From Heterodontus francisci (Eukaryota): 64,000 bases of DNA. The stretch spans positions 49,632,430 through 49,696,429 of the forward strand of contig NC_090399.1 of assembly GCF_036365525.1 (NCBI RefSeq), in the 5' to 3' direction. Position 1 is the first letter of the stretch. The number at the start of each line of letters is the position of its first letter. Shown here piece after piece: positions 22,219 through 61,842 of this stretch. The notes under the pieces are model-generated. The model had not been told where the DNA came from and searched no databases. It worked only from the letters and a program-made list of their open reading frames with translations. The position numbers were made by a program, and so were the translations under genes.

Positions 22219-22751
22219 TTACATTGCTAAATGGTGTAGTTTCAGAGGTTCAGCATGTTCGCCACTATCATTCACATTGAGAGAGAAATACGGAAAGAGC
22301 TTCTCAGTGAATGTGTTAGTATAAGTGGAGAGATGAGACATATCATCAGCATCGTAAAATGACAGCTGTCCTCCCTCGTAGTCCAGGTAAACTCCGACCA
22401 TCCTGGGTTTCACGTTCAATTCAAAAATCTCGTCAGCCTCATTCACATCTCCATTTGTCAATGACAGAACCCAATATCCATCTTCAGGGTGAAGACTGAT
22501 CACCCCCTTCCTATTGGCTGACTCGGTGGCTACACCAACAATCCACTCAGATTCATCCCCCACCTCCACCTCCCAGTAGTGTTTCCCTGATGTGAATCCC
22601 TCTGATCCCAGGACACTGAGACTTGTATCGAATCTCTCTGGATTATTACAAAACGAGACTTCCCTGTCGCTGACTTTTACGCTGGTCTGGTCCTCAGACA
22701 AGATAAGCTGAGGATGCGCTGTATTTGGGTCAAAAAACAATGGTTCTGGAA
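22219..22751 (-). CDS. TRIM exon 6: PRY/SPRY (B30.2) domain
   Basis: FDPNTAHPQLILSED, ERFD, GFTSGKHYWEVEV, VGVYLDYEGGQLSFY, FTEKLFPYF; ends in TAA. Confidence 0.95.
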
Positions 22752-34037: not shown

Positions 34038-34066
34038 GTTCACACCCTCTTACTGTGCAATCCACA

Positions 34067-35288: not shown

Positions 35289-36079
35289 CACATCACTTTC
35301 ATTGGGCAAGATTCCCATCCCAGAAAACGCGTCCGTTTATCTTGTTCTCTTAGGTCTTCCTGCATACACTAGAGTCTACTGACTACAGTATTAATTATGC
35401 AGCAGCTAGAGATCTCAGAACAGGTCGTGGAGTTCGATGGGCAGACAGCAGACCAAAGTTATACTGTAGATTGCACTGAAGATAGCAAGGGAATGATGTT
35501 TGTGAACAAAAGGCATTCCATAAGGTGCCATACAGGAGATTGTTGCCCAAGATTAGGGCTCATGAGTTTACTATTGGTTCCTTCATTGCACCCCTGTAAG
35601 GTAGGCATATCTTTCTAGGAAAGGGATCAAAACTGTACACAGCACTCCAGGTGTGGACTCTCCATAGCCCGACATAATTGCAGTAAGACTTCTTTACACT
35701 CATACTCCAACTTGCTTCAAATAAATATAGATTGCAAGACAGTGGGAGGGAAAGGATAATTTTTGGGATCATAGGGTCTCATCTCATCTCATTCTCATTC
35801 TGCACAGGCTGGGATTGGGGTCTGGGATCTTCCTGTGCCCTGTGTGTGGGGCTCTGTACTGGTGATAAACATCTCATTCTGCACAGACTGGAAATCACAG
35901 AATAATACAGTACAGAAGAGGCCCTTCGGCCCATCGAGTCTGCACCAATGCATTAAAGACACCTGACCTGTCTACCTAATCCCATTTGCCAGCACTTGGC
36001 CCATGGCCTTGACTGTTATGACGTGCCAAGTGCTCATCCAGGTACTTTTTACCTGGTCACTCCCTAGGTCTAACTTAGT

Positions 36080-38964: not shown

Positions 38965-41900
38965 CTGAAAATGAAGCAGTCGATCAGCAATCAGGAATCT
39001 GCCAGTCTCTGTAAATCTCCACCAGTCTCTGCTGATCTCCACCAGTCTCTGCCCCCAGTCTCTGCTGATCTCCACCAGTCTCTGCTGATCTCCACCAGTC
39101 TCTGCCCCCAGTCTCTGCTGATCTCCACCAGTCTCTGCCAGTCTCTGCTGATCTCCACCAGTCTCTGCTGATCTCCACCAATCTCTGCTGATCTCCACCA
39201 GTCTCTGCCAGTCTCTGCTGATCTCCACCAGTCTTTGCAAGTTGTCTAAAATCTCTGGCAGTCTCCACCAGTCTCTGCCGGTCTCCGACAGTCTTTGCCT
39301 GTCGCCGACGGTCTTTGCCAGTCTCTGCTAATCTCCGCCAGTCTCTGACAGTCTCAGCCAGTCTCTGACAGTCTTTGTCAGTCTCCGAAGATCTTGCCGT
39401 TTTGCCTCTTCCTCCAGAAGCCAATTCCAGTGATGATGCCAAGAAGAGTGAGTGAGAGGGCTGCAGCTCCAATCAGAATTCCGAACCACACCTCACCTTG
39501 TCTCGCTCGCTCTGCTGACACAAATGGTTTACATTAAATTGATAGTGATAAATAATAATTTCCGAATGATTTCATTCTGTATTTTATTAAGCTGAAAACT
39601 AGTACTCTAAATGTCCGATAGTAGAGAAAGAATAGAGAAATTTAAATATGAACAGTATTTCCTGAATTCAGGGTTAGTTTGGGATTGATACAGAGCTACT
39701 GAGATACAATGAGGCAATGGGATTAGATTAGGATGGATACATGGGTACAGGTAAAGTGCGGGGCAGTGGGATTAGTTTGGATTTGATACAACACTTTGGA
39801 AAGATTGGGGCAGTGGGATTAGGTTAGGATGGATATCGGGCAATGGAGAGAGAGCGGGGCAGTGGGATTAGTTTGGGATTGATACAGGGCTATGGGGAGA
39901 GAGTGGGGCAGTGGGATTAGTTGGGGATTCATACAGGGCTATGGGGAGAGAGCGGGGCAGTGGGATTAGTTTAGGATTGATACAGGGCTATGGGGAGAGA
40001 GTGGGGCAGTGGGATTAATTTGGGATTGATACAAGGCTATGGGGAGAGAGCAGTGCAGTGGGATTAATTTGGGATTGATACAGGGCTATGGGGAGACAGC
40101 GGGGCAGTGGGATTAGTTTGGGATTGATACAAGGCTATGGGGAGAGAGCAGTGCAGTGGGATTCATTTGGGATTGATACAGGGCTATGGGGAGACAGCGG
40201 GGCAGTGGGATTAGTCTGAGATTGATACATGGCTATGGGGAGAGAGCAGTGCAGCGGGATTAGTTTGGGATTGATACAGGGCTATGGGGAGACAGAGGTC
40301 CAGCGGGATTAGTTTGGGATTGATACAGGGCTATGGGGAGAGAGTGGTGCAGCGGGATTAGTTTGGGATTGATACAGGGCTATGGGGAGACAGAGGTGCA
40401 GCGGGATTAGTTTGGAATTGATACAGGGCTATGGGGAGAGAGTGGTGCAGCGGGATTAGTTTGGGATTGATACAGGGCTGTGGGGAGAGCGGTGCAGTTG
40501 AATTAGTTTGGAATTGATACAGGGCTATGGGGAGACAGAGGTGCAGCGGGATTAGTTTGGAATTGATACAGGGCTATGGGGAGAGCGGTGCAGCGGGATT
40601 AGTTTGGAATTGATACAGGGCTATGGGGAGAGAGTGGTGCAGCGGGATTAGTTTGGGATTGATATAGGGCTATGGGGAGACAGAGGTGCAGCGGGATTAG
40701 TTTGGGATTGATACAGGGCTATGGGGAGAGCGGTGCAGCGGGATTAGTTTGGAATTGATACAGGGCTATGGGGAGAGAGTGGTGCAGCGGGATTAGTTTG
40801 GGATTGATACAGGGCTATGGGGAGACAGAGGTGCAGCGGGATTAGTTTGGGATTGATACAGGGCTATGGGGAGAGTGGTGCAGCGGGATTAGTTTGGAAT
40901 TGATACAGGGCTATGGGGAGAGAGTGGTGCAGCGGGATTAGTTTGGGATTGATACAGGGCTGTGGGGAGAGCGGTGCAGTTGAATTAGTTTGGAATTGAT
41001 ACAGGGCTATGGGGAGACAGAGGTGCAGCGGGATTAGTTTGGGATTGATACAGGGCTGTGGGGAGAGAGCGGGGCAGTGGGATTAGTTTGGGATTGATAC
41101 AGGGCTATGGGGAGAGAGTGGTGCAGCGGGATTAGTTTGGGATTGATACAGGGCTGTGGGGAGAGCGGTTCAGTTGAATTAGTTTGGAATTGATACAGGG
41201 CTATGGGGAGACAGAGGTGCAGCGGGATTAGTTTGGAATTGATACAGGACTATGGGGAGAGAGTGGTGCAGCGGGATTAGTTTGGGATTGATACAGGGCT
41301 ATGGGGAGAGAGTGGTGCAGCGGGATTAGTTTGGGATTGATACAGGGCTGTGGGGAGAGCGGTGCAGTTGAATTAGTTTGGAATTGATACAGGGCTGTGG
41401 GGAGAGAGTGGTGCAGCGGGATTAGTTTGGGATTGATACAGGGCTGTGGGGAGAGAGTGGTGCAGCGGGATTAGTTTGGGATTGATACAGGGCTATGGGG
41501 AGAGAGTGGTGCAGCGGGATTAGTTTGGGATTGATACAGGGCTGTGGGGAGAGCGGTGCAGTTGAATTAGTTTGGAATTGATACAGGACTATGGGAAGAG
41601 AGCGGTGCAGCGGGATTAGTTTGGAATTGATACAGGGCTGTGGGGAGAGCGGTGCAGTTGAATTAGTTTGGAATTGATACAGGACTATGGGAAGAGAGCG
41701 GTGCAGCGGGATTAGTTTGGAATTGATACAGGACTATGGGGAGAGAGTGGTGCAGCGGGATTAGTTTGGGATTGATACAGGACTATGGGGAGAGAGTGGT
41801 GCAGCGGGATTAGTTTGGGATTGATACAGGGCTGTGGGGAGAGCGGTGCAGTTGAATTAGTTTGGAATTGATACAGGACTATGGGAAGAGAGCGGTGCAG

Positions 41901-44900
41901 CGGGATTAGTTTGGGATTGATACAGGGCTATGGGGAGAGAGTGGTGCAGCGGGATTAGTTTGGGATTGATACAGGGCTGTGGGGAGAGCGGTGCAGTTGA
42001 ATTAGTTTGGAATTGATACAGGACTATGGGAAGAGAGCGGTGCAGCGGGATTAGTTTGGGATTGATACAGGGCTATGGGGAGAGAGTGGTGCAGCGGGAT
42101 TAGTTTGGGATTGATACAGGGCTGTGGGGAGAGCGGTGCAGTTGAATTAGTTTGGAATTGATACAGGACTATGGGAAGAGAGCGGTGCAGCGGGATTAGT
42201 TTGGGATTGATACAGGGCTATGGGGAGACAGAGGTGCAGCGGGATTAGTTTGGGATTGATACAGGGCTATGGGGAGAGAGTGGTGCAGCGGGATTAGTTT
42301 GGGATTGATACAGGGCTATGGGGAGAGAGTGGTGCAGCGGGATTAGTTTGGGATTGATACAGGGCTATGGGGAGAGAGTGGTGCAGCGGGATTAGTTTGG
42401 GATTGATACAGGGCTATGGGGAGAGAGTGGTGCAGCGGGATTAGTTTGGGATTGATACAGGGCTATGGGGAGAGAATGGGGCAGCGGGATTAATTTGGGA
42501 TTGATACAGGCTATGGGGATACAGCGGGGCAGTGGGATTAGTTTGGGATTGATACAGGGCTATGGGGAGAGCGGTGCAGTTGAATTAGTTTGGGATTGAT
42601 ACAGGGCTATGGGGAGACAGAGGTGCAGCGGGATTAGTTTGGGATTGATACAGGGCTATGGGGAGACAGAGGTGCAGCGGGATTAGTTTGGGATTGATAC
42701 AGGGCTGTGGGGAGAGCGGTGCAGTTGAATTAGTTTGGAATTGATACAGGACTATGGGGAGAGAGTGGTGCAGCGGGATTAGTTTGGAATTGATACAGGA
42801 CTATGGGGAGAGAGTGGTGCAGCGGGATTAGTTTGGGATTGATACAGGGCTGTGGGGAGAGCGGTGCAGTTGAATTAGTTTGGAATTGATACAGGACTAT
42901 GGGAAGAGAGCGGTGCAGCGGGATTAGTTTGGGATTGATACAGGGCTATGGGGAGAGAGTGGTGCAGCGGGATTAGTTTGGGATTGATACAGGGCTATGG
43001 GGAGACAGAGGTGCAGCGGGATTAGTTTGGGATTGATACAGGGCTATGGGGAGAGAGTGGTGCAGCGGGATTAGTTTGGGATTGATACAGGGCTGTGGGG
43101 AGAGCGGTGCAGTTGAATTAGTTTGGAATTGATACAGGACTATGGGAAGAGAGCGGTGCAGCGGGATTAGTTTGGGATTGATACAGGGCTATGGGGAGAC
43201 AGAGGTGCAGCGGGATTAGTTTGGGATTGATACAGGACTATGGGGAGAGAGTGGTGCAGCGGGATTAGTTTGGGATTGATACAGGGCTGTGGGGAGAGCG
43301 GTGCAGTTGAATTAGTTTGGAATTGATACAGGACTATGGGAAGAGAGCGGTGCAGCGGGATTAGTTTGGGATTGATACAGGGCTATGGGGAGAGAGTGGT
43401 GCAGCGGGATTAGTTTGGGATTGATACAGGGCTATGGGGAGAGAGTGGTGCAGCGGGATTAGTTTGGGATTGATACAGGGCTGTGGGGAGAGCGGTGCAG
43501 TTGAATTAGTTTGGAATTGATACAGGACTATGGGAAGAGAGCGGTGCAGCGGGATTAGTTTGGGATTGATACAGGGCTATGGGGAGAGAGTGGTGCAGCG
43601 GGATTAGTTTGGGATTGATACAGGGCTGTGGGGAGAGCGGTGCAGTTGAATTAGTTTGGAATTGATACAGGACTATGGGAAGAGAGCGGTGCAGCGGGAT
43701 TAGTTTGGGATTGATACAGGGCTATGGGGAGACAGAGGTGCAGCGGGATTAGTTTGGGATTGATACAGGGCTATGGGGAGAGAGTGGTGCAGCGGGATTA
43801 GTTTGGGATTGATACAGGGCTATGGGGAGAGAGTGGTGCAGCGGGATTAGTTTGGGATTGATACAGGGCTATGGGGAGAGAGTGGTGCAGCGGGATTAGT
43901 TTGGGATTGATACAGGGCTATGGGGAGAGAGTGGTGCAGCGGGATTAGTTTGGGATTGATACAGGGCTATGGGGAGAGAATGGGGCAGCGGGATTAATTT
44001 GGGATTGATACAGGCTATGGGGATACAGCGGGGCAGTGGGATTAGTTTGGGATTGATACAGGGCTATGGGGAGAGCGGTGCAGTTGAATTAGTTTGGGAT
44101 TGATACAGGGCTATGGGGAGACAGAGGTGCAGCGGGATTAGTTTGGGATTGATACAGGGCTATGGGGAGACAGAGGTGCAGCGGGATTAGTTTGGGATTG
44201 ATACAGGGCTATGGGGAGAGCGGTGCAGTTGAATTAGTTTGGGATTGATACAGGGCTATGGGGAGACAGCGGGCCAAATGGCCTCCTTCTGTGGAGTAAA
44301 TGCCATCTTTTTAACATGCCTATTGTGCCTGCTCTATGTAATAACAGGACAAGCTCTCCAGTTCAAATCCTCCCACTCAGCACAGCCCAGAGTTAAAGCT
44401 GTAACTCTGTATTCTGTGTCTCTTAGTTCCACATTGGGCAGTCCATTTACTAATTGTGCTACTGGGACGATTCAAGGGTTTAATCCTCAGTGTAACAAAG
44501 TGAAACATTTACAAGGAAGCTAGGAATGGAAAAAAGAGGAATGATTATATTTAGCAGCACTCTTCGTGACCGTGGACAACCCAAAGCACTTTACAGTCAA
44601 TGAAGCACTTTTGAAGAGTCACCACTCTTGTCATGTATAACAGTGGCAGCCATTTTTGCATACAGCAAGATCCCACAACAGCAATATGATGTTAATTTAA
44701 TGATGTTGGTTGAGGGGTAACTTTTGGCAGGACACCGGGGAAAGCTTCCCTGCTCTTCTTTGAATAGTGCTGTGGGATCTTTTCCATCCATGTGTTCATT
44801 TCACCAACTTCCTGCAATTCTCACCTCCCTGGTAAACCTGGCTTTAGCTGGATGAACTGCACCAGTGTCCCTGAACGTACCTGAGGCTCCCCAAGCCTTA

Positions 44901-47900: not shown

Positions 47901-50900
47901 TGAGTTGTTCTGGGCACCGCACCTTAGGGAGAATATATTGACCTTGGAGGGGGTGCACTGCTGATTTATCTTCCATACACAAAGCATGGTAGAAGTTTAG
48001 AACTCTCTGCTGCTAAAGACAATTGATGCTAGATTAATTGTTAATTTAAAACTGAGATTGATGGATTTTTGTTAACTGAAGTAATAAGGGATACGAGACG
48101 AAGGTGGTTATCTGGAGTTAGATCACAGTTAGTCACAATCTCATTGAATGGTCATACGGGCTCAAGGGGGCTAAATGGCTTATTCCTGTTCCTAAGTTCC
48201 TCTGCGGACAAGGACACCCAAATCACTCTGAATATCGACATTTACTAGTCTCGCACCTTTTAAGAAAATAATCTTAGTGTGTCTGACCATGACAGATAAA
48301 ACCAGCTCAGTGGTCCCCAGGGCTTTTTGCTCCACTTAGACGGACTGAATTACCACCCTGAGACATGGGGAAGAATCCTGCAGCCCTCTCGACTTGTCAC
48401 TTACCCCAGGGTACGTCGAGCCCCTGCAGGAAGCTGGCGTGATCGACATGACAGCAGTATCTCTCCCCATTGTCCCCGCTCAGCTCAACCGATTTCATCA
48501 CCCGATACGTCTCATCCTGGTTGGGCAGTATGCCACTGGATTCAGCGTCAGGGATCACCTCGCCATTCCTCAGCCACTCCACATCGATAGTCCATGGGTA
48601 AAAGCCCGTCACAAGGCAGGAGAGCCTCAGCACCCGCTCCCCCTCACTCCTATTCCCGATGAACACCTCAGGGGCGGCTGAGAGAGTTAAACAAGAACTA
48701 AAATCACTGGCAAGTTCCGATGAACGGTCATCGACCTGCACCGTTAACTCAGTTTCTCTCTCCACAGATACTGCTGAGTATTTCCAACCTTTTCTCTTTT
48801 TATTTCAGATTTCCAGGATTTTTGCTTTTGTGTTAGTGACAAATTCCCCTTTCATTCCATTATCTTTTCCCCACCCACCACCAACTTTCTCCGCTGAAGG
48901 CAGACGACTGTACTGAGATACCACACAAGGAAAGAGAAGCTGAGGGTTGACCCAATGCAGATCTGTAGAATTATGAACGGGTTCAATAGGATAGATGTAG
49001 AGAAGTTGGTTCCATTTGTTGGGGGAGAACAAAACTAGAGGCTATAAATGTGGGCAGTTACTAATAAATCCAATAGTGACTTCAGGAGAAACATCATAAC
49101 CCAGAGAGTGGTGAGAATGTGGAACTCGCCACTATGTGGAGTGGTTGAGGTGAATAGAATAGATACATTTACAGAGAAGCTAGATAAACATTTGAGCGAG
49201 AAAGGAATAGAAGGATATGCTGGTAGGGTGAGATGAAGTCTGGTGGGAGGAGGCTCTTGAAGAGCATATATGCCAGCATAGACCAGTTGGGCCGAATGGC
49301 CCCTTTCTGTGCTGTATATTCTATGTAATTCGATGCAAAGTTGAGCTCTTGTACGGCACACAGGTACCCAATGTTCAAGGGTGATCTTACACCCAGAAAG
49401 CTTTTCAAGCAAGGGTAGGGGTGGTGGTATTGCAGCATAGGCCAATTTTATCTTGACCCAATTTCAACATGCACACACTTTCCAGCTAAGGTGACTGTGT
49501 CAGTCAGTGAATTTAGGTCACGTGTCTGAATTTCTACCCACCCCACTCACCACCAAAGCATTGGGTACTGAGTCAAGTTGCAGCACCAATTTACTGCTGC
49601 CCTGTCCAAGAACAGCAGGCTCAGGACAGACCCGGGAATAAAACCTGGTCTAGGCCACACTTCCCACCCGAGCCATCGGGAGCACTCCCGTCAGTCCTCG
49701 TTCCCATGACGTACCTTTCCTCTGCAGAGCTCTTCGCCCACACTCAAGATATATCAGCAGCCATTTCACACAGTCCTTTTCCAACAGAGCCTTGAAGTAC
49801 TTGTTCATGAAGCTGTTCCCATTCCACCGGTCAGCTAACGCCTGGAACTCTGGATTTAGTGCGATCCAACTCGTTCTGTCCTTATCGAAAACATACGCAT
49901 CCTTCCCGCCAAATCCCAGCTTTAGAAACCCATCCGTGGAATTATCACCATGTATTTCACAGCCACACAGTCCCTGCACAAAGCAAATACCTGGGGAAAG
50001 TATTAATACTCAACTCAATTCATAACGTGGAACGGTTTCTATCAGGTACATACAACAAGTTGCATCTGTACAGCAATTTAGCATTGTAAAACATTTCAAG
50101 GCATTTCACAGGAGCATCATCGAACAGAAAGCCGAGAAGAGTACAGGAAGTATAGGGCTGCAATTAAAAAGGACATTTGGAAAGCAAAGAGAGAGCATGA
50201 AAAAATATTGGCAAATAAAAATCAAGGAAAACCCAAAGATTTTTTATCAATACATATAGAGCAAGGGAATAACTAAGGAAAGAGTGGGGCCATTTAGGGA
50301 CCAAAAAATAACCTCAGTATGGGGGAGCAAGATATGGGCATGGTTCTTAATGAATGCTTTACATCTGTTTTCAGAAAAGAGAGGGATGAAGCAAATGAAG
50401 GAGGAGGAGTGTGAAATATTGGAATGGATAAACATAATGAGGAAGACAATATTAAGGTGTTTACCACTTTTGAAAGTGGTTAAATTGCCAGGCCAGATGA
50501 AATGTATCCCAGGCTGCTAAGGAAAGCAAGACAAGAAACAGCGGAGGCTCTGACCATCATTTTCCAATCCTCTCTAACTACAGGTGTGCTGCTAGAGGAC
50601 TGGAGGACTGCTAATGTTGCACCATTGTTATAAAATGGAGGAAGGCATAGCCTGAATAATTACAGACCAGTCAGTCTAATCTCGATGGTAAGCAAATCAT
50701 TGGAAAAATTCCTGAGAGACAGCCTAAATCAGCATTTAAGAAAGCACAGATTAATCAAGGACAGTTGGCATGGATTTGTTAAGGAAAGGCCGTGTCGAAC
50801 TGATTTGATTGAATTTTTTGAGGAGGTAACAAGGAGGGTCAATAACGTTTGCTGTAGTTTACATGAAGAGCTGGAACCTGTCATAGCCGCTAAGCGCATT

Positions 50901-53900
50901 GCACTGTTGAACTACAAGAAAGCTCCCAACGAGTTAACATCCGTAGCATTTAAAGTAGCCAGAAGCGCTGCACAAAGAACAGCCAGGCTCTGTGCAAATG
51001 ACCACTGGAAACATCTATGCAGTCGTATTCAGCTGGCTGTAGGAATGTATGATGGCATCAAGAGAGCTTTTGGGCCAACCATCAGGAAGATCGCCCCCCT
51101 CAAATCTAAATCAGGGGACACGATCACTGACCAACGCAAGCAAATGGACCGCTGCGTGGAGCACAACCTAGAACTGTACTCCAGGGAAAATGTTGTCACT
51201 GATTCTGCCCTCAATGTAGCCCAGTCTCTGCCAGTCATGGATGAGCTGGATGAACAGCCAACAAAATCGGAACTCAGTTATGCTATTGATCCTCCAGCCA
51301 GTGGAAAAGCCCCTGGAAAGGACGGCATTACCCCTGAAATAATCAAGAGTGCCAAGACTGCTATGAGGGAGCAATACCACAGGACATGCGCGATGCCAAT
51401 ATCATCACCCTCTATAAGAACAAGGGTGACCGCGGTGACTGCAACAACTACCATGGAATCTCTCTGCTCAGCATAGTGGGGAAAGTCTTCGTTCGAGTTA
51501 TTTTAAACAGACTCCAGAAGCTGGCTGAGTGTGTCTACCCTGAGGCACAGTGCGGCTTTCGAGGAGAGAGATCCACCACTGACATACTGTTCTCCCTTCG
51601 CCAGCTACAGGAGAAATGCCGCAAACAACAGATGCCCCTCTACGTTGCTTTCATAGATCTCACCAAAGCCTTTGACCTCGTCAGCAGACGTGGTCTCTTC
51701 AAGTTACTAGAAAAGATCGGATGTCCACTAAAGCTACTAAGTATTATCACCTCATTCCATGACAATATGAAAGGCACTATTTAGCATAGCGGTGCCTCAT
51801 CAGACCCCTTTCCTATCCTGAGTGGCGTGAAACAGGGCTGTGTTCTCACACCTTCACTGTTTGGGATCTTCTTCTCACTGCTGCCCTCACATGTGTTCAA
51901 GTCTTCAGAAGAAGGAATTTTCCTCCACACAAGATTAAATGGCGGGTTGTTCAACCTTGCCCGTCTTAGAGCAAAGACCAAAGTACAGAAGGTCCTCATC
52001 AGGGAACTCCTCTTTGCTGACGATGCTGCATTAACAACCCACACAGAAGAGTATCTGCAGAGACTCATTGACAGGATTGCGGCTGCCTGCAACGAATTTG
52101 GCCTAACCATCAGCCTCAAGAAAACTAACATCATGGGACAGGACGTCAGAAATGCTCCATCTATCAATATCAGCGACCACGCTCTGGAAGTGGTTCAAAA
52201 GTTCACCTACCTCGGCTCAACTATCACCAGTAACTTGTCTCTCGATGCAGAAATCAACAAGCGCATGGGAAAGGTGTCCGCTGCTATGTCCAGACTGACC
52301 AAGAGGGTGTGGGAAAATGGCACACTGACACGGAACACAAAAGTCCAAGTGTTTCAAGCCTGTGTCCTGCCACCTATGTCAGTCAAGAGCGATGTCTCAA
52401 CTCATTTCATCTTCGCTGCCTCCGGAGAATCCTTGGCATCAGGTGGCAGGACCGTATCTCCAACGCAGAAGTCCTCGAGGTGGCCAACATCCCCAGCATA
52501 TACTGAGCCAGAGGCGCTTGAGATGGCTTGGCCATGTGAGCCGCACGGAAGATGGCAGGATACCCAAGGACACATTGTACAGCGAGCTCGTCACTGGTAT
52601 CAGACCTACCGGACCTCCATGTCTCCGCTTTAAAGACGTCTGCAAACGCGACATGAAGTCCTGTGACATTGACCACAAGTCGTGGGAGTCAGTTGCCAGT
52701 GATTGCCAGAGCTGGCGGACAGCCATAAAGGCAGGGCTAAAGAGTGGCGAGTAGAAGAGACTTAGCAGTTGGCAGGAAAAAAGACAGAAACGCAAGGGGA
52801 GAGCCAACTGTGTAACAGCCCCAACAACCAATTTTATCTGCAGCGCCTGTGGAAAAGTCTGTCACTCTAGAATTGGCCTTTATAGCCACTCCAGGCGCTG
52901 TTTCACAAACCACTGACCACCTCCAGGCGCTTACCCATTGTCTCTTGAGACAAGGAGACCAAAGAAGAAGAAGTTTCCATGGATTTTCGCGAGGCTTTTG
53001 ACAAGGTCGCACATGGCAGACTGATCAGTAAATTAAAAAGGATTCAAGGGAAAGTGGCAAGTTAGATCCAAAATTTGCTCAGTGGCAGGAAGGAAAGGGT
53101 TATGGTGTTTTTGTGGCTTGAAGGCCGTTTCCAGTGGGTTTCTGCAGAGCTCAGTACTCGGTCCCTTTCTTTTTGTGGTATATATCTATGTTTTAAAAGG
53201 TTTTGGGTTCAAGTCTAACTCCAGGGCTTTTAGATTACATAGATTAGATTAGATTACAGATACAGCACTGAAACAGGCCCTTCGGCCCACCGAGTCTGTG
53301 CCGACCATCAACCACCCATTTATACTAATCCCACACTACCATATTCCTACCAAACATCCTCACCTGTCCCTATATTTCCCTACCACCTACCTATGCTAGT
53401 GACAATTTATAATGGCCAATTTACCTATCAACCTGCAAGTCTTTTGGCTTGTGGGAGGAAACCGGAGCACCCGGAGAAAACCCACGCAGACACAGGGAGA
53501 ACTTGCAAACTCCACACAGGCAGTACCCAGAATCGAACCCGGGTCCCTGGAGCTGTGAGGCTGCAGTGCTAACCACTGTGCCACTGTGCCGCCCAACTCA
53601 AAAATTGAGGCTGACACTTCAGTGCAATACTGAGGGAGTACTGCACTGTCAGAGGTGCTGTCTTTTGGATGAGATATTAAACCGATGCCCCATCTGCCTG
53701 CTTGGTTGGATGTAAAAGATCCTGTGGCACTATTTCGAAGCGGAGCAGGGGAGTTATCCCTGGTGTCCAAGCCAATAATTATCTCATTGCTCTTTGCGGG
53801 TGTTTGCTGTGTGCAAATTGGCTGCTGTTTTCCCTCCATTACCTCATTGGCTGGAAAGCACTTTGAGACATCAGGTGGTCATGAAAAACATGATTTAAAT

Positions 53901-56900
53901 GCAAGTCTTCCTTTCTTTCTTCATTATTTAGACTTTAATGTTAAGGGGGCATGGTTAGGAAATCCTCTGTTCTAAAGAAAGTACAGTACTGTAGCTGTGG
54001 TCTATCTGATGTTTTATATGGTTCCAGCGTAACTTCCCTGCTCTTATACTCTAGGCCTCGGCCAAATGTATGATTTAGACTTAAGTGTAGGGTTAAGAAA
54101 TTTGCAGATGATATGAAATTTGGTCATGTGGTTGGTAGTGAGGAAGAAAGCTATCGACTGCAAGAAGATATCAGTGGGCTGGTCAGGTGGGCAGAAAGTT
54201 GGTAAATGGAATTCCAGTGACCTTGGGGCCCCTTTGTTCCTCCAGAGTTTTCAGAATCCTATCATTTATTGTGCATTCTCTTGCCTTGTTTGTCCTCCCC
54301 AGATGCATTACCTTTCACTTCTCCGGATTGAATTCCATTTGCCACTGTTCTGCCCACCTGACCAGCCCACTGATATCTTCTTGCAGTCGATAGCTTTCTT
54401 CCTCACTGCCAACCACATGAACAAATTTCATATCATCTGCAAATTTCTTAACCCTACACTTAAGTCTAAATCATACATTTGGCCGAGGCCTAGAGTATAA
54501 GAGCAGGGAAGTTATGCTAGAACCATATAAAACATCAGATAGACCACAGCTACAGTACTGTACTTTCTTTAAAACAGAGGAGGCTGAGGGAAGACTTAAT
54601 TGAGGTGTCTTAAATTGAGGGGCCATCCAGGACTGAAATCTGTAATAAAAACAGAAAATGCTGGAAATACTCAGCAGGTCTGGCAGCATCTGTGGAGGGA
54701 GAAATAAAGTTAACGTTTCACTTCGATGACCTTGCATCAGAATTGGGAAAAGTTATAAATGTCATAGGTTTTGAGCAAGTGAAAGGGGGCAGGCAGTAAA
54801 AAAGAACAAAAGGGAAGGTCTGTGATCGGGTAGAAGGTAGGAGAGATTAAATGGCATAAGGGTTGAGAGTGAAAGGCCAAAGGACTGGTAATGGGACAAG
54901 GAAAGGAACAATGTCTAGAGGAAGGTGAATAGCTGAATCATGAACAGCTGCTGTCCGATAGCAAAAAGAGAAAAACAAGAGAGAAAAAGCTTAAGCAGAA
55001 AAGAGAAAGGAAACAAAAAGGGGGCAGAGGTTACGATCTGAAATTGTTGAACTCAATGTTAAGTCCAGAAGGCTGTAAAGTGTCCAGTCAAAAGATGAGG
55101 TGCTGTTCCTCGAGCTTACATTGAGCTTCATTGGAACACTGCAGGAGGCTGAGAACAGAGAGATCAGAGTGGGAGCAAAGTTGGAGAATTAAAATGTTGG
55201 GTGACCGAAAGCTCAGGGTCACACTCGCAGACTGAACGAAGGTGTTCCGCAAAGTGGCCACCCATTCTGCGTTTGGTCTCTCTAATGTAGAGGAGACCAC
55301 ATCGTGAGCAGCAAATACAGTATACTAAGTTGAAAGAAGTACAAATTTGGAAGCCGTTTTCCACATAAAGGGTCACACTAATCCGAATTCTCCCGCTCCA
55401 AAAGTCTGTGAATGTCGAGGGATGGTTGGAACTTTCAAGACTGAGATCGAAAGGTTGTTGTTGTCTAAGGGCACCAAGGGCCAGGGAGCAAAGTCAGGTC
55501 AATGGGGTTCAAGTGCAGATCAGCCATGATGTATGCGAATGGTGAAAGAGCTGAAAGAACATAAGAAATAGGAGCAGAAGTAGACAATATGGCCCCTCAA
55601 ACCTGCTCCACCATTCAATACGATCGTGACTGATCCTCAGCCTCAATTCCACTTTGCCACTCCTTTCCAAAGAGTCACAACCCTCTGCGTGAAGACATTT
55701 CTCCTCATCTCAGTCCTAAATGATAGACCCCTTATCCTTAGACTATGCCCCATGTTCTAGATTCCCCAGCCAAGGGAAACAACCTCTCAGTCTCTACTCT
55801 GAGATCACCGCTCATTCTCCTAAATTCCACAGAATATAGGCCCACCCATCGCATCCCAGAATGAATGTACTGAATCTCGTAATTCCTAAGCAATTGTGTT
55901 CCGCTGAGATTCAATTCATGCTTTGCTCTGCTGAAATTTAAACTTATCAATAGGTTACATAGTACTTACAGCCAAAAAACAGGCCACTTGGCCCGTGGGT
56001 TAGATACCAGGGGGTCCAACAGGTTGCCAGGATGTGCAGTGAGTGTGGATTGACTGGGAGTGTTGGAAAGGGAGCTGGACCATATTTCATATTATAGAGG
56101 ATGTGTGGGATAACAGTGATATCAACCATTGTGGTCTCCTACACCTGCTACAATTCCTTCCAGGGATCGCAAAGGAAGTTCCCACACATTTTGTTATCCT
56201 TAGTTGTCTGATGTTTAGTTTATATATTTTGCCTCACCAAGGAGATTGCACGATTCTGGGAGGACAGGAAGCTGGGGGTTGAATGATGCTGAGGTGGTAT
56301 ATCGGCCTGGCAATACTGAGACAGCACTGCACTGTCAAAGGGGCAGTACTGAGGGAGTGCTGCTCTGTCGGAGGGACAGTACCAAGCAAGTGCTGCACTG
56401 TCGGAGGGTCAGTACTGAGGGAGTGCTGCACTGTCGGAGGGGCAATACCGAGCAAGTGCTGCGCTGTCGGAGGGTCAGTACTGAGGGAGTGCTGCACTGT
56501 CAGAGGGCAAAAACCGAGCAAGTGCTGCACTGTCGGACCGTCAGTACTGAGGGAGTGCTGCACTGTCGGAGGGACAATACCAAGCAAGTGCTGCACTGTA
56601 GGAGGGGCAATACCGAGCAAGTGCTGCGCTGTCGGAGGGTCATTACTGAGGGAGTGCTGCACTGTCGGAGGGTCAGTACTGAGGGAGTGCTGCACTGTCA
56701 GAGGCTCAGTACTGAGAGAGTGCTGCACTGTCGGACCGTCAGTACTGAGGGAGTGCTGCACTGTCAGAGGGTCAGGACTGAGGGAGTGCTGCACTGCCAG
56801 AGGGTTTGGACTGATGAAGTACTGCACTGTCGGAGGGTCAGTACTGAGGGAGTGCTGCACTGTCGGAGGGGCAATACCGAGCAAGTGCTGCACTGTCAGA

Positions 56901-59900
56901 CCGTCAGTACTGAGGGAGTGCTGCACTGTCGGAGGGACAATACCAAGCAAGTGCTGCACTGTCGGAGGGGCAATACCGAGCAAGTGCTGCACTGTCGGAG
57001 AGTCGGTACTGAGGGAGTGCTGCACTATTGAAGGTTCAGTACCGAGGGAGCACTGCATTGTAAGAGGGGCAGAAATGAGGGAGTGCTGCACTGTCAGAGG
57101 GTCAGTATCGATGAAGAACTGCGCTGTCAGAGGGGCAATACTGCAGGAGTGCGCAGTGTCGGAGGAGCAGTACCAAGGAAGGATTGCACTGTCAGAGGAC
57201 ATAACTGCGGGAGTGCTGCAGTGTTGGAGGAGCAGTACGGATTGAGTGCTGCACTATCAAAGGTTCAGTACCGAGGGAGCACTGCACTGTAAGAGGGGCA
57301 GTACTGAGGGAGTGCTACATTGTCAGAAATGCCATCTTTCAGATGAGATATTAAATCAACATCCCATCTATTTGTTATGTTTAACATAAATAAAACCAAC
57401 CAGGGATTTTCCCAAAATAGGAGATAAACAAATTATCCATCCGATTGTTCTTTGCTTTGCATCAAATGGCTGCCATGCTAAAATTAGGACCAGCTAATCC
57501 CAAGTCAGTTATTGGGTGTAAAGTGGCTCAGGATGTTTCTACAGCCTTGTATCGATAGAGATCCTTTCCTATAGTCACAGGGTCACCGCACCGTTTCTGT
57601 GAGGACACTTACTTGAAGCACCATGGCGCTGTCTGTAAAATATCTCAGCATTTCCTTTGACAATACCATGGAAGCCCGCTATCGTGATAGCCATCGCATC
57701 CCAGTGCTTCTTCTGGAAGGAATCAGCCATCCAGCTCTGTCTGGGCACAGTCCGCTGCAGGGTGCTATCGAAATATACTATCTGATAGTCATCCAGCATT
57801 GCCACCAAACTGTACTCGGGCAGCTCGGCCTGGCCAAGGTTCAATAGGTAGTAAAATGCGAGGATATGAAAATCTGCAGGATAACAAACAAGAACCAGCC
57901 TCAAAAAGGCTATCGACTGTAAAGTAACTCATAGTGGGAATGGCACCGGTTAACGAAAAATCAGTTTAGTACATAAGAAATACAAGTAGGAGTCGGCCAT
58001 ACGTCCCCTCTAGTCTGCTCTGCAATTTAATAAGACCATGGCTGAATTTCTATCTCAACTACACTTTCCCACCCACTCGTCACATTCCTTGACTCCCTTA
58101 CTGCCCAAGAATCTATCTCGCTCAATCCTGAATATACTCACTGACTGAGCATTCACAGCTCTCTGGGGTAGAGAATTCCAAAGATCATAATTGGAATATT
58201 GTGTCCAGTTTTGGATACCATATGTTGAGAAGGATGTCATGGTTGTGGAAGAGATTTGCCTGGGTGATTCCGGGTGTGAGAGGCTTGAGTTAAGAGGACA
58301 GACCACAGGAAGAGAAAAGATCGAGCGATCTGATCGAGATGTCTAAACTATTGGGGGTTGGCAAAGAGAATCAACACTCCTCATTGTTCGGTAAGTTAGT
58401 AATGCGGGGGTGGGGAAGAAGAGCATTGGAAAATTCATCACCTGTTTCTCCCCCCACAGTGGCATTGTCCGATTTGCCAATTTATTCTAATTAACAAGAC
58501 AGTAAGTAGGTTTGCCACTGGCAAATTTTCTACATAATCAAACACAAAGAGTTCACTTTGGCCTTGACTCACTCAGAGACTGTAATAAATGGACAGTGTT
58601 TGCTCAGAAATAAAAGCTCATTCTTGGACCTGAGCAGCAGATTGGATAGTGCCAAAGTCCATTGTGTTTCTGTGAGGTGAAAGTGCAACCAGAGGGCAGG
58701 GTTACAATCTACACCTACTTCAGTGTCACCCTGCAGAAGTAGCAGGAGGTTCGGAAAGAATTTACATTTATACAGTGCCTCTCACAACCTCAGAATGTCC
58801 CAAAGCACGACACAGCCAATGGAGTAATTCTGAAGTGTAGTCACTATTGCAATGTAGGAAACATCACTCATTATGTGAAGTGCTTCATTACTGGAGCAAA
58901 AAAACTATTTTCTCTGGTGGTGAGGGTGGCTTCGCATAACGTGAAAATCAAAGCTAAGCCACTCCAGGGTTTGTCAGGAAGGACTTCTTCGGCAACACAG
59001 GCATCTACCCTGCAATGTCGGAAACTGCCCAGGTTTGTCCAGTCGGCAAAAAGTAGGCCAAGTCCAATCTGGCCACTTACCACCCCATCAATCCACTCTC
59101 AGTCAACACCACAGTGTCATCGGCAGTGCTGTCCAGTGGCACTTACTCAGCATTAACCTGTTCACTGATGCTCAGCTTGGATTCCACCGGGGCCACTCGG
59201 CTGCAGACCTAAATTCCAGAGGTGAAATGAGAGTGACTGCACTTCATATCAAGGCAGCATTTGGCATCAAGGAGCCCTAGCATAACTGACATCAAAGGAA
59301 ATCAGGGGGAGAGCTCTCCGCTGGTGTCGAGGAAGCCTTGGTGCATAGCTGCAGTGCATCTTGTAGATGGTACACACTGCTGCCACTGTGTGTTGGTGCC
59401 AATCAAGCGGGCTGCTTTTTCCTGGATGGTGTTGATCTTCTTGAGTGTTGTTGGAGCTGCACCTATCCAGGCAGGTGGAGAGTATTCTATCACACTCCTG
59501 ACTTGTGCTTGGTAGATGGCGGACAGGCTTTGGGGAGTCAGGAGGATTCCGAGCCTCTGACCTGCTCTTGTAGCCACGTTATTTATATGGCTACTCCAGT
59601 TCAGTTCCTGACTTGTGCCTTATAGATGGCGGACAAGCATTGGAGAATCAATAGGAGAGTTACTCTTTGCAGAATTCCCAACCTCTGACCTGCTGTTGTA
59701 GCAACACTGTTTATACGGCTGGTCCAGTTCAGTTTCTAATCAATGGTATCCCAGGATGTTGATGGTAGTGGATTCAGCAATGTCAATGCTGTCAAGGGGA
59801 GATAATTAGATTCTCTCTTGTTGGATATGGACCTTGCCTGGCACTTGTGTAGCGCGAATGTTAATTTCTACTTATCAGCCCATATTGCTAGATATGGACA

Positions 59901-61842
59901 TGGACTGTTTCATTATCTGAGTAGTTGGGAATGGTACTGAACATTGCAATCATCAGCAAACATCCCCACTTCTAACATTATGATGGAAGGAAGGTCATTC
60001 ATGAAGCAGCTGAAGATGGTTGGGCCGAGGACACTACCCTGGTTGGGCCTCGTCCCCCACCAACATTCATGACTGGATTCGGAACTGCAGAGCTTTGATC
60101 TAATCCGTTAATTGTTGGATCACTTAGATGTGTTTAGAACAAGCTGCTTCCACTGCTTTAGCATGCCTGGTGCTGCTTCTGGCATGCTCTACTACACTCC
60201 TCATTGAACCAAGGGTTGATCCCCTGGTTTGATGTTAATGGTAGAGTGGGGATATGCCGGGCCATGAGGTTACAGATTGTGGTTGAATACAATTCTGGTG
60301 CAGCTGACGACCCACAGCACCTCATAACAGAATCACAGAATTGTTACAGTGCAGAAGGAGGCCATTCAGCCCATCGTGTCCGCACTGGCTCTCTGAGAGA
60401 GCAATTCCCTCAGTCCCATTCCCCTGCCTTTTCCCCATAACCCTGCACATTTTTCCTTTTCATATAACTGTCTAATTCCCTTTTGAATGCTTTAATTGAA
60501 CCTGCCTCCACCACATTCTCAGGCAGCGCATTCCAGACCTTAACCACTCGCTGCGTGAAAAAGCTTTTCCTCATGTCACTTTTGCTTCTCTTACCAAATA
60601 CTTTAAATTTGGTAAATCTCATTCTCGATCCTTTCATGAGTGGGAACAGTTTCTCTCTATCTACTCTGTCCATACCCGTCATGATTTTGAATACCTCTAT
60701 CAAATCACCTCTCAGCCTTCTCCCCTCCAAGGAAAACAGTCCTAACTTCTCCCATCTATCTTCATAACTGAAATTCCTCATCCCTGGAACCATTGTCGTG
60801 AATCTTTTCTGTAGCCTCTCCAATGCCTTCACGTCTTTCTTAAAGTGCGGCGCCCACTAGTGTCCTATACAAGTTCAACATTCCTTGCACATTTTTGACC
60901 TGATGCCACAAGATTCCAAGGGCTCCGCAGTCAATGGTGAGGACTCTCAGGGCCATTCACTCCCGGCTGTATACCACTGTGTCGTCACCTCTGGTGGGTC
61001 TGTCCTCTGGGTCATTGTCTGTAAGGTATGATTCTGTGAGTATGACTCTGTCAGACTGTTGCTTCTCTCATTGTCTGTAAGGTATGATTCTGTGAGTAAG
61101 ACTCTGTCAGGCTTTTGCTTCTCTCGCCTGTGGGGCAGCTCTCCCAATTTTGACACAAGTCCCCAGATGTTAGCAAGGAGGACTTTGCAAGGTTGACTAA
61201 GTTGAGAGTGCCTTTGTCGTCAGATTACTAGTCCAGGCCTCTAGATTACTACTCTAGTAACGTAACCACGATGCTACCATTCCTCATGGCAGGGCAAGTA
61301 AATTGAAAATTTCAAAACTGAGATTGATAGGCAATACAGAACCAAGACAGGTAGATGGAGGGCCTGAATGACTGCAGTTTACATTAATATAACACTTCGG
61401 GAACAACTCAAATATTGTGAAAACTCTCTCTCCCCTTCTCCTCCTTTTACTTTCCTACTCCCCATTCCTTCCTTTCTATTCTGCTTTCTCAAATATTTTT
61501 CCCTTCCATCCCCTCCCAAATTAGAGCTCAAAGACTTCTCACCCAAAGGGCTATTATTTGAATGTGCACCTTGGCAATAATTGCCAATCCATAAAATAAC
61601 TGCTCCGACCAAAGACTTTGCAAACAAATCTGTAACACAACTTCGCACAGTGACCCCCTCACCAGTACAGGTATTATGCTTACCCTGAATCGTTCACACA
61701 CCCAGGGCAATGAAATAATCTTGTGGTACTGTCAACCTGGGAGGTTCCCTCAAATACTAGCCACCGATATAAGCTGTTTGAATTGCTTACCAGAGGAGAC
61801 TGTGGACACACAGTAAACATTCAATAAAGTAACAAGCAGCAT
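38945..61842 (-). CDS. Non-classical MHC class I heavy chain (leader-alpha1-alpha2-alpha3-TM-short tail), 332 aa
   Basis: Exons of 52, 261, 276, 273, 117 and 20 nt, all joined by phase-1 introns, open frame. alpha2 C101-C164 pair; C1-set Ig alpha3 LSCLVTGFYP...W...YCCHVDH; hydrophobic TM followed by RKR. Confidence 0.9.
38998..39386. repeat. Minisatellite of 10 bp subunits (CCAGTCTCTG / CTGATCTCCA; 20-30 bp periods)
   Basis: Directly visible tandem repeats that become more degenerate toward 39386. Confidence 0.9.
39398..39514 (-). CDS. MHC-I transmembrane exon (read-through form ends at TGA 39378)
   Basis: gtcag|CA GAG...: AERARQGEVWFGILIGAAALSLTLLGIITGIGFWRKRQN; NAGNAG acceptor; 117 nt up to G|gcaaga. 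Confidence 0.88.
39665..44275 (+). repeat. Tandem satellite, 47-49 bp unit GGGATTAGTTTGGGATTGATACAGGGCTATGGGGAGAGAGTGGTGCAGC, roughly 90 copies, in MHC-I intron 4
   Basis: Directly visible; degenerate left edge; copy number estimated as length divided by unit. Confidence 0.97.
44540..44795 (-). mobile_element. Deu-SINE 3' fragment
   Basis: Matches 28210-28500 (AAAGCACTTTACAG...CAGCAAGATCCCACAA). Confidence 0.6.
44930..45440 (+). mobile_element. CR1 3' fragment
   Basis: Degenerate ORF2 end plus GGGCTGAATGGCC 3' UTR motif. Confidence 0.75.
45905..46580 (+). mobile_element. Deu-domain SINE with an internal 33 bp tandem expansion (8 units, 45988-46250)
   Basis: Head GGTTCGAGTCCCACTCC; repeated CAGTACTGAGGGAGTGCTGCACTGTCGGAGGGT; tail TATAAATGCAA. 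Confidence 0.85.
47005..47380 (-). mobile_element. tRNA-derived SINE with CR1/L2-group tail
   Basis: Reverse complement of the family at 27700-28100. Confidence 0.75.
47440..48200 (+). mobile_element. Old CR1 fragment
   Basis: KCEVIHLG...QRDLWVQIH; CR1 3' UTR. Confidence 0.78.
48405..48677 (-). CDS. MHC-I alpha3 exon (C1-set Ig)
   Basis: ctcag|CC GCC CCT GAG...; LSCLVTGFYPWTIDVEWLRNG...ILPNQDETY...YCCHVDHAS...PW G|gtaagt; 273 nt. Confidence 0.95.
48713..48830 (+). mobile_element. Penelope pLTR remnant with decayed hammerhead (48713-48749)
   Basis: AGTT-CCGATGA-ACGGTC ATC GACCT-GCAC-C-GTT-AACT, followed by the same downstream sequence as 4918-4980. Confidence 0.65.
48940..49330 (+). mobile_element. 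CR1 3' fragment
   Basis: FRRNIITQRVVRMWNS...GIEGY; GGGCCGAATGGCC tail. Confidence 0.8.
49715..49990 (-). CDS. MHC-I alpha2 exon
   Basis: ccccag|GT ATT TGC...: SICFVQGLCGCEI...GGKDAYVFD...SWIA...DRWN...LEKDCVKWLLIYLECGRRALQRK G|gtacgt; 276 nt. Confidence 0.95.
50866..52971 (+). mobile_element. RTE-clade LINE, 5'-truncated
   Basis: KAPGKDGITPE, NYHGISLLS, PEAQCGFR, AFIDLTKAFD, KQGCVL, LFADDAAL, FTYLGS; (GAA)n tail; ~10 bp TSD AGTTTACATG / AGTTTCCATG. Confidence 0.93.
53200..53915 (+). mobile_element. Deu-domain SINE interrupted by an HE1 V-SINE (53230-53594, minus)
   Basis: Head GGGTTCAAGTC before the HE1 copy; Deu core GGCTGACACTTCAGTGCAATACTGAGGGAG after it. Confidence 0.85.
53963..54581. 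repeat. Inverted duplication: 252 bp arms (53963-54214, 54330-54581) around a ~115 bp spacer
   Basis: Arms are near-perfect reverse complements, e.g. AAAGAAAGTACAGTACTGTAGCTGTGGTCTATCTGATG vs CATCAGATAGACCACAGCTACAGTACTGTACTTTCTTT. Confidence 0.92.
54640..55345 (-). mobile_element. Penelope-like element 3' part (GIY-YIG endonuclease plus pLTR with decayed hammerhead at 54708-54744)
   Basis: CTSFNLVYCICCSRCGLLYIRETKRR...FAEHLRSV; QCKLEEQHLIF; AATT-CTGATGC-AAGGTCATCGAAGT-GAAA-C-GTT-AACT. Confidence 0.85.
56311..57360 (+). repeat. 33 bp minisatellite (about 31 units) derived from the Deu-SINE core, in MHC-I intron 2
   Basis: Unit CAGTACTGAGGGAGTGCTGCACTGTCGGAGGGT with variant CAATACCGAGCAAG; runs directly into SINE sequence TGCCATCTTTCAGATGAGATATTAAA. 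Confidence 0.93.
57613..57873 (-). CDS. MHC-I alpha1 exon
   Basis: ctgcag|AT TTT CAT...: DFHILAFYYLL...LPEYSLVAMLDDYQIVYFDS...VPRQSWMA...HWD...HGAS A|gtaagt; 261 nt. Confidence 0.93.
59000..60325. mobile_element. Rearranged CR1/L2-group LINE fragments on both strands
   Basis: Plus-strand piece 59000-59320 and minus-strand pieces with EYSPPAWIGAAPTTLKK. Confidence 0.75.
60325..60880 (-). mobile_element. CR1 3' fragment
   Basis: ORF 60410-60832 ending QGYGEKAGEWD*; tail repeat ACAGAAT. Confidence 0.9.
61791..61842 (-). CDS. MHC-I leader exon, MLLVTLLNVYCVSTVSS
   Basis: ATG plus a hydrophobic signal peptide; phase-1 donor G|gtaagc fits the alpha1 acceptor; CCAAT at 61945-61949 upstream. Confidence 0.8.

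Follow-up and report, generated by a model that had tools for sequence, protein, structure and literature searches.

A single-copy non-classical MHC class I gene of Heterodontus francisci, likely sister to UGA, with a groove suggestive of hydrophobic ligands

The 64,000-nucleotide window of Heterodontus francisci contains an MHC class I gene of five exons, all of them open and bounded by canonical splice sites (Table 1). The leader, alpha1, alpha2, alpha3 (C1-set) and transmembrane segments occupy separate phase-1 exons, as in the class I exon plan. A previous sequence-only reading had placed the gene at 49715..57873; this interval does hold the alpha1 and alpha2 exons, which are open and of canonical size, just as that reading had stated, and which are in phase 1 and flanked by AG/GT, while the leader, alpha3 and transmembrane/tail exons lie outside it. 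The length of 332 aa given there is obtained if the transmembrane exon is entered at a tandem acceptor lying 3 nt further upstream, the spliced frame itself yielding 331 aa. Both the C101-C164 and the Ig disulfides are present in the predicted protein. Its alpha1 helix carries small residues, including G69, G72 and G76, and the alpha2 domain has one N-glycan site, together with G97 and an unpaired C99 on the floor. Class I heavy chains and beta2m form a textbook pair, and Q96, G120, D122 and the alpha3 P-N-x-D stretch, which we take to be beta2m-interface residues, are found in this product.

Table 1. Features of the class I gene and its 3' region (window positions).
Feature	Position	Strand	Remarks
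Whole gene	61842-39378	minus	five exons; 331 aa spliced frame
Exon 1	61791..61842	minus	ATG and 17-aa leader, phase-1 GT donor; from the spliced frame; leaders near-identical in P0002 and P0004
Exon 2	57613..57873	minus	alpha1 domain, 261 nt; F7, H59, Q84; no N86 glycan site
Exon 3	49715..49990	minus	alpha2 domain, 276 nt; L143, R146, W147, L159, Y171
Exon 4	48405..48677	minus	alpha3 C1-set Ig domain
Exon 5	39378..39511	minus	connecting peptide, transmembrane helix, 11-aa tail to TGA; no tyrosine motif
Putative decayed or GC-type donor	39393..39398	minus	G/GCAAG where the UGA paralog has a G/GTAAG donor to a tyrosine-motif micro-exon
Repeat after the transmembrane segment	39002..39387	minus	10/20/30-nt repeat
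Satellite	39674..44273		49-nt unit, ~95 copies; fills half of intron 4

A chance origin of these reading frames is excluded by the matches to Pfam MHC_I and C1-set, by the match of alpha1 to PDB 9CH4 (E 1.9e-22) and by orthologs from sharks and rays at 66-87% identity in alpha1 and 71-80% in alpha2. Pfam MHC_I scored 92-98 bits versus 29-35 bits for MHC_I_3, and a DNA search of the genome returned one match, that is, one gene copy. The orthologs are automatic gene models whose automatic NCBI name derives from MR1; they are more conserved in alpha1 and alpha2 (0.76 and 0.76) than in alpha3 (0.65). In the search for members outside elasmobranchs, covering 147 further proteins among the best 150 of a 50%-cluster library, only two carried lineage features, a UGA and a fragment, both from skates; since concatenated class I models crowd this list, non-elasmobranch members may have escaped it. 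The ESM Atlas returned generic class I clusters only.

The copy in this species has some peculiarities: D119 is replaced by Gly, an extra Cys occurs at position 93, and the homolog searches did not return the species' own protein. The predicted tails of the orthologs run through a repeat homologous to that following the transmembrane helix here, where two in-frame TGA codons interrupt it. These traits would suit a gene recently silenced in this species, a reading that five open exons with canonical splice sites, and a terminal branch no longer than those of the orthologs (0.09-0.15), make barely credible.

The cytoplasmic tails vary widely among the orthologs of this lineage. A tyrosine sorting motif is present in 0 of 16 ortholog tails and is lacking in this gene, while four of nine UGA tails have one, all of these tails being gene models. 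Between the transmembrane exon and the next gene there was no C-terminal candidate for a tyrosine micro-exon, and no homology to the flanks of the UGA micro-exon was found. One loose candidate for a hidden micro-exon, at 35617 within an apparent LINE remnant, was discarded; none emerged under the C-terminal rule.

Past transcription of the gene follows from a retrocopy elsewhere that is spliced at the alpha2-alpha3 junction; in it the final 13 nt of alpha2 run directly into alpha3, and the sequence then continues for ~197 nt into intron 4. Read-through past the alpha3 donor meets a stop after two codons, and the retrocopy hints at a possible soluble form. AATAAA sites lie 0.6-1.4 kb into intron 4, and ortholog model P0001 ends likewise. 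Along with the variable tails, these features would be expected if the product served mainly to carry lipids, secreted or shed in the manner of ZAG or CD1e, and less to present antigen at the surface; such a role is nevertheless very improbable, given an intact transmembrane exon that all full-length orthologs conserve, and given that partly spliced RNA can also give rise to a retrocopy. Expression was checked in four runs (X1-X4) from other organisms, guessed to be RNA, aligned to 48300-50100. Contigs of X1 and X2 match portions of the alpha2 and alpha3 exons with 84-90% likeness; one contig, from X2, stops exactly at the alpha3 donor and has 39 further letters, and another enters the intron by 14 nt. 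No contig of the four runs bridges alpha2 and alpha3, and X3 and X4 gave no exon matches, so that the X1 and X2 contigs are a weak hint of expression.

Phylogenetic trees place this gene and its orthologs in a clade of their own (100/100), separate from UGA, UFA, UDA, UEA, UBA and UAA. UGA likewise forms a clade (100/100), both clades contain shark and skate members, and the two are joined at 95/88, or 94/89 under a mixture model (not starred). Seven residues are fixed both in this lineage and in UGA, and no other shark row has them. With alpha1 and alpha2 alone and fewer rows, support for the branching order among UGA, UFA and this gene falls to 58/0 (AU p ~0.49 for alternatives), and an alpha3-only tree does not join this gene to UGA. 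In both sequence and fold, the best solved match is 9CH4, an entry whose title names it as the nonclassical class I molecule UGA of shark; a fold search with ortholog models gave it Z 26.4 (rmsd 3.2, 268 aligned), the next match reaching 23.8, and the scores did not discriminate among CD1, HFE, ZAG, FcRn and classical molecules (Z 23.0-23.8). The gene is, on these sequence comparisons, a separate paralog and likely the sister of UGA.

Several assignments were examined and rejected, with lineage labels such as UEA and UBA assigned by eye against the supplement of PMC10751288. The gene is not UGA itself, as it falls outside the 9CH4-type clade (two clades, 100/99-100 each) and the true UGA ortholog is a different gene ~110 kb away in this genome, as it is a separate gene in other species. 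It is not UFA either: it stands outside the 8GM8-type clade, UFA forms its own clade (100/100), and the UFA ortholog lies ~350 kb away, on C29. The UDA-type gene of the same genome reads YYRTKWYY at the anchor columns and belongs to a separate clade, and the multicopy UEA and UBA clades are also separate, at 19-33% alpha1/alpha2 identity. MR1 identity was rejected (clade p 1e-5; Thr at the column of the Schiff-base lysine, K43). That a chimaera gene labelled UGA in the supplement is the ortholog of this lineage was not supported; it branches apart with a long-branch warning, and holding it together gave p-AU 0.051. W-category MHC molecules consist of two class II-like chains with two domains each; the exon plan here is that of a three-domain class I molecule, and the trees were built without W-category sequences. 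The sequence-only reading had left open an unassigned lineage, which fits, with UGA the closest; the gene is not the named UFA or UGA, since an ortholog of each lies close by in the same genome.

The relation to CD1 was also examined. This gene and CD1 fall on one side of a split from the classical, MR1, UDA and UEA rows (95/91-92); orthology to tetrapod CD1, represented by a single, long-branched bird sequence, was neither supported nor rejected (p-AU 0.35). No CD1 appears among the best 60 sequence matches, where MR1 and classical molecules score above CD1.

The classical peptide anchors are largely lost. In a formal alignment, this gene has FHQLRWLY in the columns where shark, lungfish and UDA rows show YYRTKWYY, with two of eight identical to the classical residues; the anchors originally assigned by eye were thus reproduced residue for residue, and the classical ones were not restored. 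One detail had to be amended, in that non-mammalian classical molecules carry R84 and not Y84, Q84 differing from both. F7 is found in all 10 ortholog rows having the position, H59, Q84, L143, R146, L159 and Y171 in 13 of 13, and W147 in 10 of 13, with Leu in three carpet sharks. The proposed non-classical nature is therefore borne out, with anchors lost lineage-wide and membership of the classical UAA clade rejected (p-AU 9e-7).

Groove hydrophobicity was compared at 40 positions, taken from a list of groove residues and mapped by alignment rather than read from model coordinates. Mean Kyte-Doolittle hydropathy at these positions is 1.10 for this gene, with two charged residues, and 0.84-1.26 across the lineage, versus 1.03-1.12 in bird CD1, 0.66-0.83 in UFA, 0.15-0.69 in UGA, -0.11 in MR1 and -0.20 to -0.75 in classical-type and UDA rows having all 40 positions. 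The predicted groove positions are therefore the most hydrophobic among the shark lineages compared, and their unusual hydrophobicity, first noticed by eye, holds against classical-type values below zero. Conservation is slightly higher in groove columns than in other alpha1/alpha2 columns (0.87 vs 0.82, p 0.09). Conserved polar residues in the groove are few (N77, R146 and D163), and the helix tops carry the invariant residues I65, A68, G69, G72, G76, E79, K154, K157, E161, K162 and K166.

Bulky aromatics are also conserved at groove positions (F7, Y9, F70, Y155, F156, W167 and Y171) and might constrict the cleft or shut it. A groove that is closed or holds no ligand, with a receptor or chaperone role as in HFE or FcRn, would draw on these fixed aromatics, on the very conserved helix surface and on the fold scores, in which HFE and FcRn are level with CD1 and with classical molecules (Z 23-24); as G97, A123 and C99 on the floor are all small residues fixed in the lineage, and the closest paralog is reported as a lipid binder, we consider this improbable. 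Retention of R146, W147 and Y171 fits a lipopeptide ligand too. Somewhat less unlikely than a closed groove, though still unlikely, is that a short groove presents lipopeptides, or else some small hydrophobic metabolite, with R146 and W147 fixing a carboxylate or phosphate. This reading is modelled on chicken YF1, which, according to an excerpt of PMC2998441, combines the class I scaffold with a hydrophobic groove that is narrow and has basic residues at its F end, and whose complex with N-acyl glycine is among the fold matches. The near-complete retention of those three residues speaks for it, while the C-terminal-site T143 and R/Y84 are replaced in all 13 lineage rows, W147 is lost in the carpet sharks, and the position of the MR1 Schiff-base lysine holds T, A, I or C.

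Lipid-binding CD1-like shark class I molecules have already been reported and crystallised. A review (PMC12562908, excerpt) states, citing a personal communication, that crystal structures and mass spectrometry show UFA and UGA to bind lipids as CD1d does. Nurse shark UGA is PDB 9CH4 (released 2026-03-18; sequence Gcirratum_UGA in supplemental file 10 of PMC10751288), and UFA is PDB 8GM8 (released 2024-11-27). With UGA, this gene shares the class I fold, the exon plan, the MHC-Ib cluster, the alpha1 helix motif (T66, A68, G69, G72, G76), the alpha2 helix motif (M152, Y155, F156, L159, D163), the G97 floor and the loss of T143 and Y159. In contrast, identity is just 41-49% (alpha1), 37-43% (alpha2) and 36-44% (alpha3), four groove changes are fixed (H59, N77, C99 and R146 for Y, Q, F and K in UGA), and this gene is more hydrophobic and lacks the N86 glycan site, the tyrosine tail motif and the micro-exon. 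UFA resembles it in anchor loss, hydrophobic groove, G97 and cluster, but shows 31-35% (alpha1) and 22-27% (alpha2) identity and lacks W133, W147 and Y171. Bird CD1 has lost the anchors and equals it in groove hydropathy, yet is 16-17% (alpha1) and 23% (alpha2) identical; CD1a and CD1e are also without a tyrosine motif, according to an excerpt of PMC5002281. MR1 is the top-scoring mammalian relative of alpha2, although its groove is polar and this gene lacks the Schiff-base lysine. YF1 combines a classical-looking scaffold with a hydrophobic lipid-binding groove and is close to chicken classical class I (PMC2998441, excerpt), whereas the present lineage is older than the shark-ray split and nearly invariant in its groove. 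No description of this paralog was found in the literature searched, outside which the primary UFA/UGA publication may include it, and the gene is apparently an unnamed relative of UGA. In a table of white shark genes the MHC-Ib entries carry no lineage names, and the ortholog may be among them.

Altogether, we favor, with a probability of about two in three, an intact single-copy non-classical class I gene from a lineage conserved in sharks and rays and likely sister to UGA, whose product with beta2m would present a lipid or other hydrophobic ligand and not peptide; the ligand is deduced from groove chemistry and kinship to UGA. In such a molecule, acyl chains would rest on a floor that G97, A123 and C99 make deeper, beneath helices lined by M, I, F, V and L, with a polar head group held near N77, R146 and D163. 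The invariant helix top might dock a single conserved receptor, for instance a T-cell receptor of innate-like type. Having no sorting motif, the product would acquire its ligand along the secretory pathway or at the cell surface, in the fashion of CD1a; UGA, by contrast, would go to endosomes.

It has long been asked whether the presentation of lipid antigens is as ancient as that of peptides, and UFA and UGA were recently proposed as the answer from sharks. A third gene, conserved separately and having another groove and no sorting tail, would indicate that the shark system diversified and is no single relic. The scaffold shared with the solved 9CH4, four fixed groove differences and a different tail offer a side-by-side test, and work on UGA by probe, antibody or tetramer must reckon with an adjoining paralog. 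More speculatively, and on balance doubtful, three linked lipid-presenting class I genes of sharks and rays may divide labour as CD1a-e do. This gene would be the undescribed third, duplicated with UGA before the shark-ray split, deprived of its sorting micro-exon through splice-donor decay, endowed with the most hydrophobic groove of the set and a fixed free floor cysteine, and perhaps also secreted as a lipid carrier. If so, trafficking-based specialisation of lipid presentation would have arisen in cartilaginous fish in parallel to, or before, the mammalian CD1 isoforms.

The window holds a real, intact, non-classical MHC class I gene, encoded on the minus strand by five exons (61842-39378; coordinates in the table) and representing a distinct paralog lineage, whose product is probably lipid-binding. 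Scripted splicing yields 331 aa, where the sequence-only reading had expected 332 aa. That reading placed the gene at 49715..57873, a span that does contain the open alpha1 and alpha2 exons it described, both of them real, and leaves the leader, alpha3 and TM/tail exons outside. The exons match Pfam MHC_I and C1-set, and the introns measure 3.9, 7.6, 1.0 and 8.9 kb. Intron 2 harbors a reverse-transcriptase-like element (window 50634-52861, plus strand), which we take to be of a LINE family, apparently nested in another LINE fragment; the same 33-nt minisatellite occurs in introns 2 and 4 (56327-57324 and 45991-46235), with its unit phase read oppositely.

Coordinates of the window gene (window positions) and of related features elsewhere in the same genome
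Feature	Position	Strand	Remark
Leader exon	61842-61791	minus	
Alpha1 exon	57873-57613	minus	open, phase 1, AG/GT ends
Alpha2 exon	49990-49715	minus	open, phase 1, AG/GT ends
Alpha3 exon	48677-48405	minus	
TM + tail exon	39511-39378	minus	
UGA TM exon and micro-exon	locus L075, about 2325-2342, and locus L072, 6450-6578	minus	micro-exon ~14 kb further on
Decayed processed copy of the window gene	locus L074, 5077-5537 (G000:C5, ~95.646 Mb)	minus	outside MHC contig

Formal alignment, with HLA-A2 numbering taken over from HLA-A2 and shark UAA as they are aligned in the available supplement of PMC10751288, bears out the claimed loss of peptide anchors: the window gene reads FHQLRWLY at columns where classical-type rows read YYRTKWYY. 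The lineage floor carries fixed small residues (G97, C99 and A123); the unpaired C99 is Phe in 8/8 UGA rows and is not unique to the lineage, since it is also found in shark UAA rows. At 40 positions that we assume, from class I structures and mapping by alignment, to line the groove, mean hydropathy is 1.10, in agreement with the unusual hydrophobicity first noticed, and only R146 and D163 are charged. Orthologs range from 0.84 to 1.26 and bird CD1 from 1.03 to 1.12, followed by UFA (0.66-0.83), UGA (0.15-0.69), UEA (-0.23 to 0.37), MR1 (-0.11), and the classical-type, Z and UDA rows having all positions (-0.20 to -0.75). Binding of a lipopeptide or metabolite, modelled on chicken YF1 (PMC2998441, available part), seems rather unlikely, and a closed groove less likely still. 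Groove columns are barely more conserved than the remainder (p 0.09). Predicted models of two orthologs, of which the second reaches a pLDDT of about 90 across alpha1/alpha2, have 9CH4 as best fold match (Z 26.4, rmsd 3.2, 268 aligned), with HFE, chicken CD1, ZAG, FcRn and classical molecules tied next at Z 23.0-23.8.

PDB 9CH4, titled shark nonclassical class I UGA, is the best solved relative, and 8GM8 is UFA; by eye, both match labelled nurse shark queries in the available PMC10751288 supplement, among whose queries no lineage sequence is present. The window gene is not UGA itself: a separate UGA (L022, L002), with an alpha1 identical to P0016 (NCBI label Heterodontus francisci), lies ~110 kb downstream, and in the 33-row alpha1+alpha2 tree the lineage (100/99), UGA (100/100) and UFA (100/100) form separate clades. 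Together these three split from UAA, UBA, UDA and UEA at 99/96. Under a mixture model (19 rows), grouping with UAA is rejected (p 9e-7), which upholds the suggested non-classical status, and the branching order among lineage, UGA and UFA receives 58/0, with alternatives at p ~0.49. The alpha3-only tree keeps the lineage whole, not joined to UGA. An alpha1-3 tree adding bird CD1, marsupial MR1, chimaera, lungfish, sturgeon and salamander rows unites lineage and UGA at 95/88 (30 rows) or 94/89 (22 of those, mixture model). Grouping with MR1 is rejected (p 1e-5), grouping with CD1 is not (p 0.35; alpha1-3, mixture model), and grouping with the chimaera gene is borderline (p 0.051). These rows may be drawn together by convergence on a hydrophobic groove and by long branches. 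The chimaera genes P0075, P0099 and P0157, which the published queries list as UGA, stand apart from elasmobranch UGA in these trees, have a more charged groove and may represent a separate lineage.

Lineage and UGA share seven fixed residues absent from other shark rows and show nine fixed differences, four at the groove. Both paralogs coexist in Heptranchias, Cetorhinus, Stegostoma, Chiloscyllium and Leucoraja on equal-sized contigs for each pair (same-contig placement is judged from size, and P0202 is UGA by cluster only), and the Leucoraja accessions are consecutive. Their presence within the same shark and skate species therefore implies a duplication before the shark-ray split. UGA itself is low-copy, since one sawshark has two UGA-type models (P0020, P0021). 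UFA-, UDA- and UEA-type genes, labelled by eye against the supplement, begin ~340 kb upstream. A TRIM gene with RING, B-box, coiled coil and PRY-SPRY (window 22222-34049, minus) separates the window gene from UGA and shares their strand. A 427-aa open frame (13687-14967, minus) presumably resembles a Harbinger/HARBI1-type nuclease. Elsewhere, roughly ten class I copies, nearly identical to one another and retaining the complete set of classical anchors (L010, L014-L020, L027-L035; C29 57-63 Mb and small contigs), resemble the supplement's UAA-2. Off the main MHC contig, weak matches to C1-set or to class I alpha1 occur at G000:C49 13.15-13.20 Mb and C130:771019-771183; C130 looks UEA-like and could be an unplaced piece.

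An alpha1 query found 11 proteins (31 candidates) and a full-length ortholog query 15 (2282 candidates), 13 of them of this lineage, whose labels, cluster members included, span 14 shark, skate and ray genera. Compared with the window gene, identity is 66-87% in alpha1 and 71-80% in alpha2 (12 orthologs, excluding P0001 with its truncated alpha2), and 49-78% in alpha3 (11 orthologs, P0009 also being excluded for a gap). F7 is fixed in the 10/10 rows having the position; H59, Q84, L143, R146, L159 and Y171 are each present in 13/13 and W147 in 10/13. The window gene is single-copy in its own genome (one DNA match; next protein matches 46% and 38%), and copy number varies across the lineage, since in one species 11 nearly identical models are spread over several contigs.

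The UGA TM exon ends in G|GTAAG and is spliced to a tyrosine-motif micro-exon; the matching site in the window gene is G|GCAAG. Ortholog models read through the TM exon into a short repeat, and in the window gene two TGA codons cut this read-through to an 11-residue tail. The tyrosine motif occurs in 4/9 UGA tails versus 0/16 ortholog model tails, and no C-terminal tyrosine micro-exon candidate was found from the TM exon to the next gene. Human CD1a and CD1e, according to the available part of PMC5002281, likewise lack the motif. The decayed copy on C5 can be aligned to the window gene across 484 columns (77%). In this copy the final 13 nt of alpha2 run directly into alpha3, and ~197 nt of intron 4 come after. 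It shows that there was once a spliced transcript, and it hints at a protein form ending immediately behind alpha3. A secreted carrier is highly improbable, and recent silencing of the gene is the least probable alternative.

UFA was named CD1-like, as unpublished, in the available text of PMC10751288, and that of PMC12562908 describes UFA and UGA, by personal communication, as single- or low-copy lipid binders. Primary UFA/UGA structure, UDA or UEA papers, or their supplements, may cover this gene, at somewhat less than even odds. What this window contributes is a single-copy gene in tandem with UGA, its decayed donor and its retrocopy. The reading we favor, at a probability of about 0.68, is that of a beta2m-paired, nearly monomorphic surface molecule, which would bury acyl chains in its hydrophobic cleft and hold the ligand head group near N77, R146 and D163. 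Loading, to judge from the tail, would occur outside late endosomes, and a conserved receptor would read the loaded molecule.
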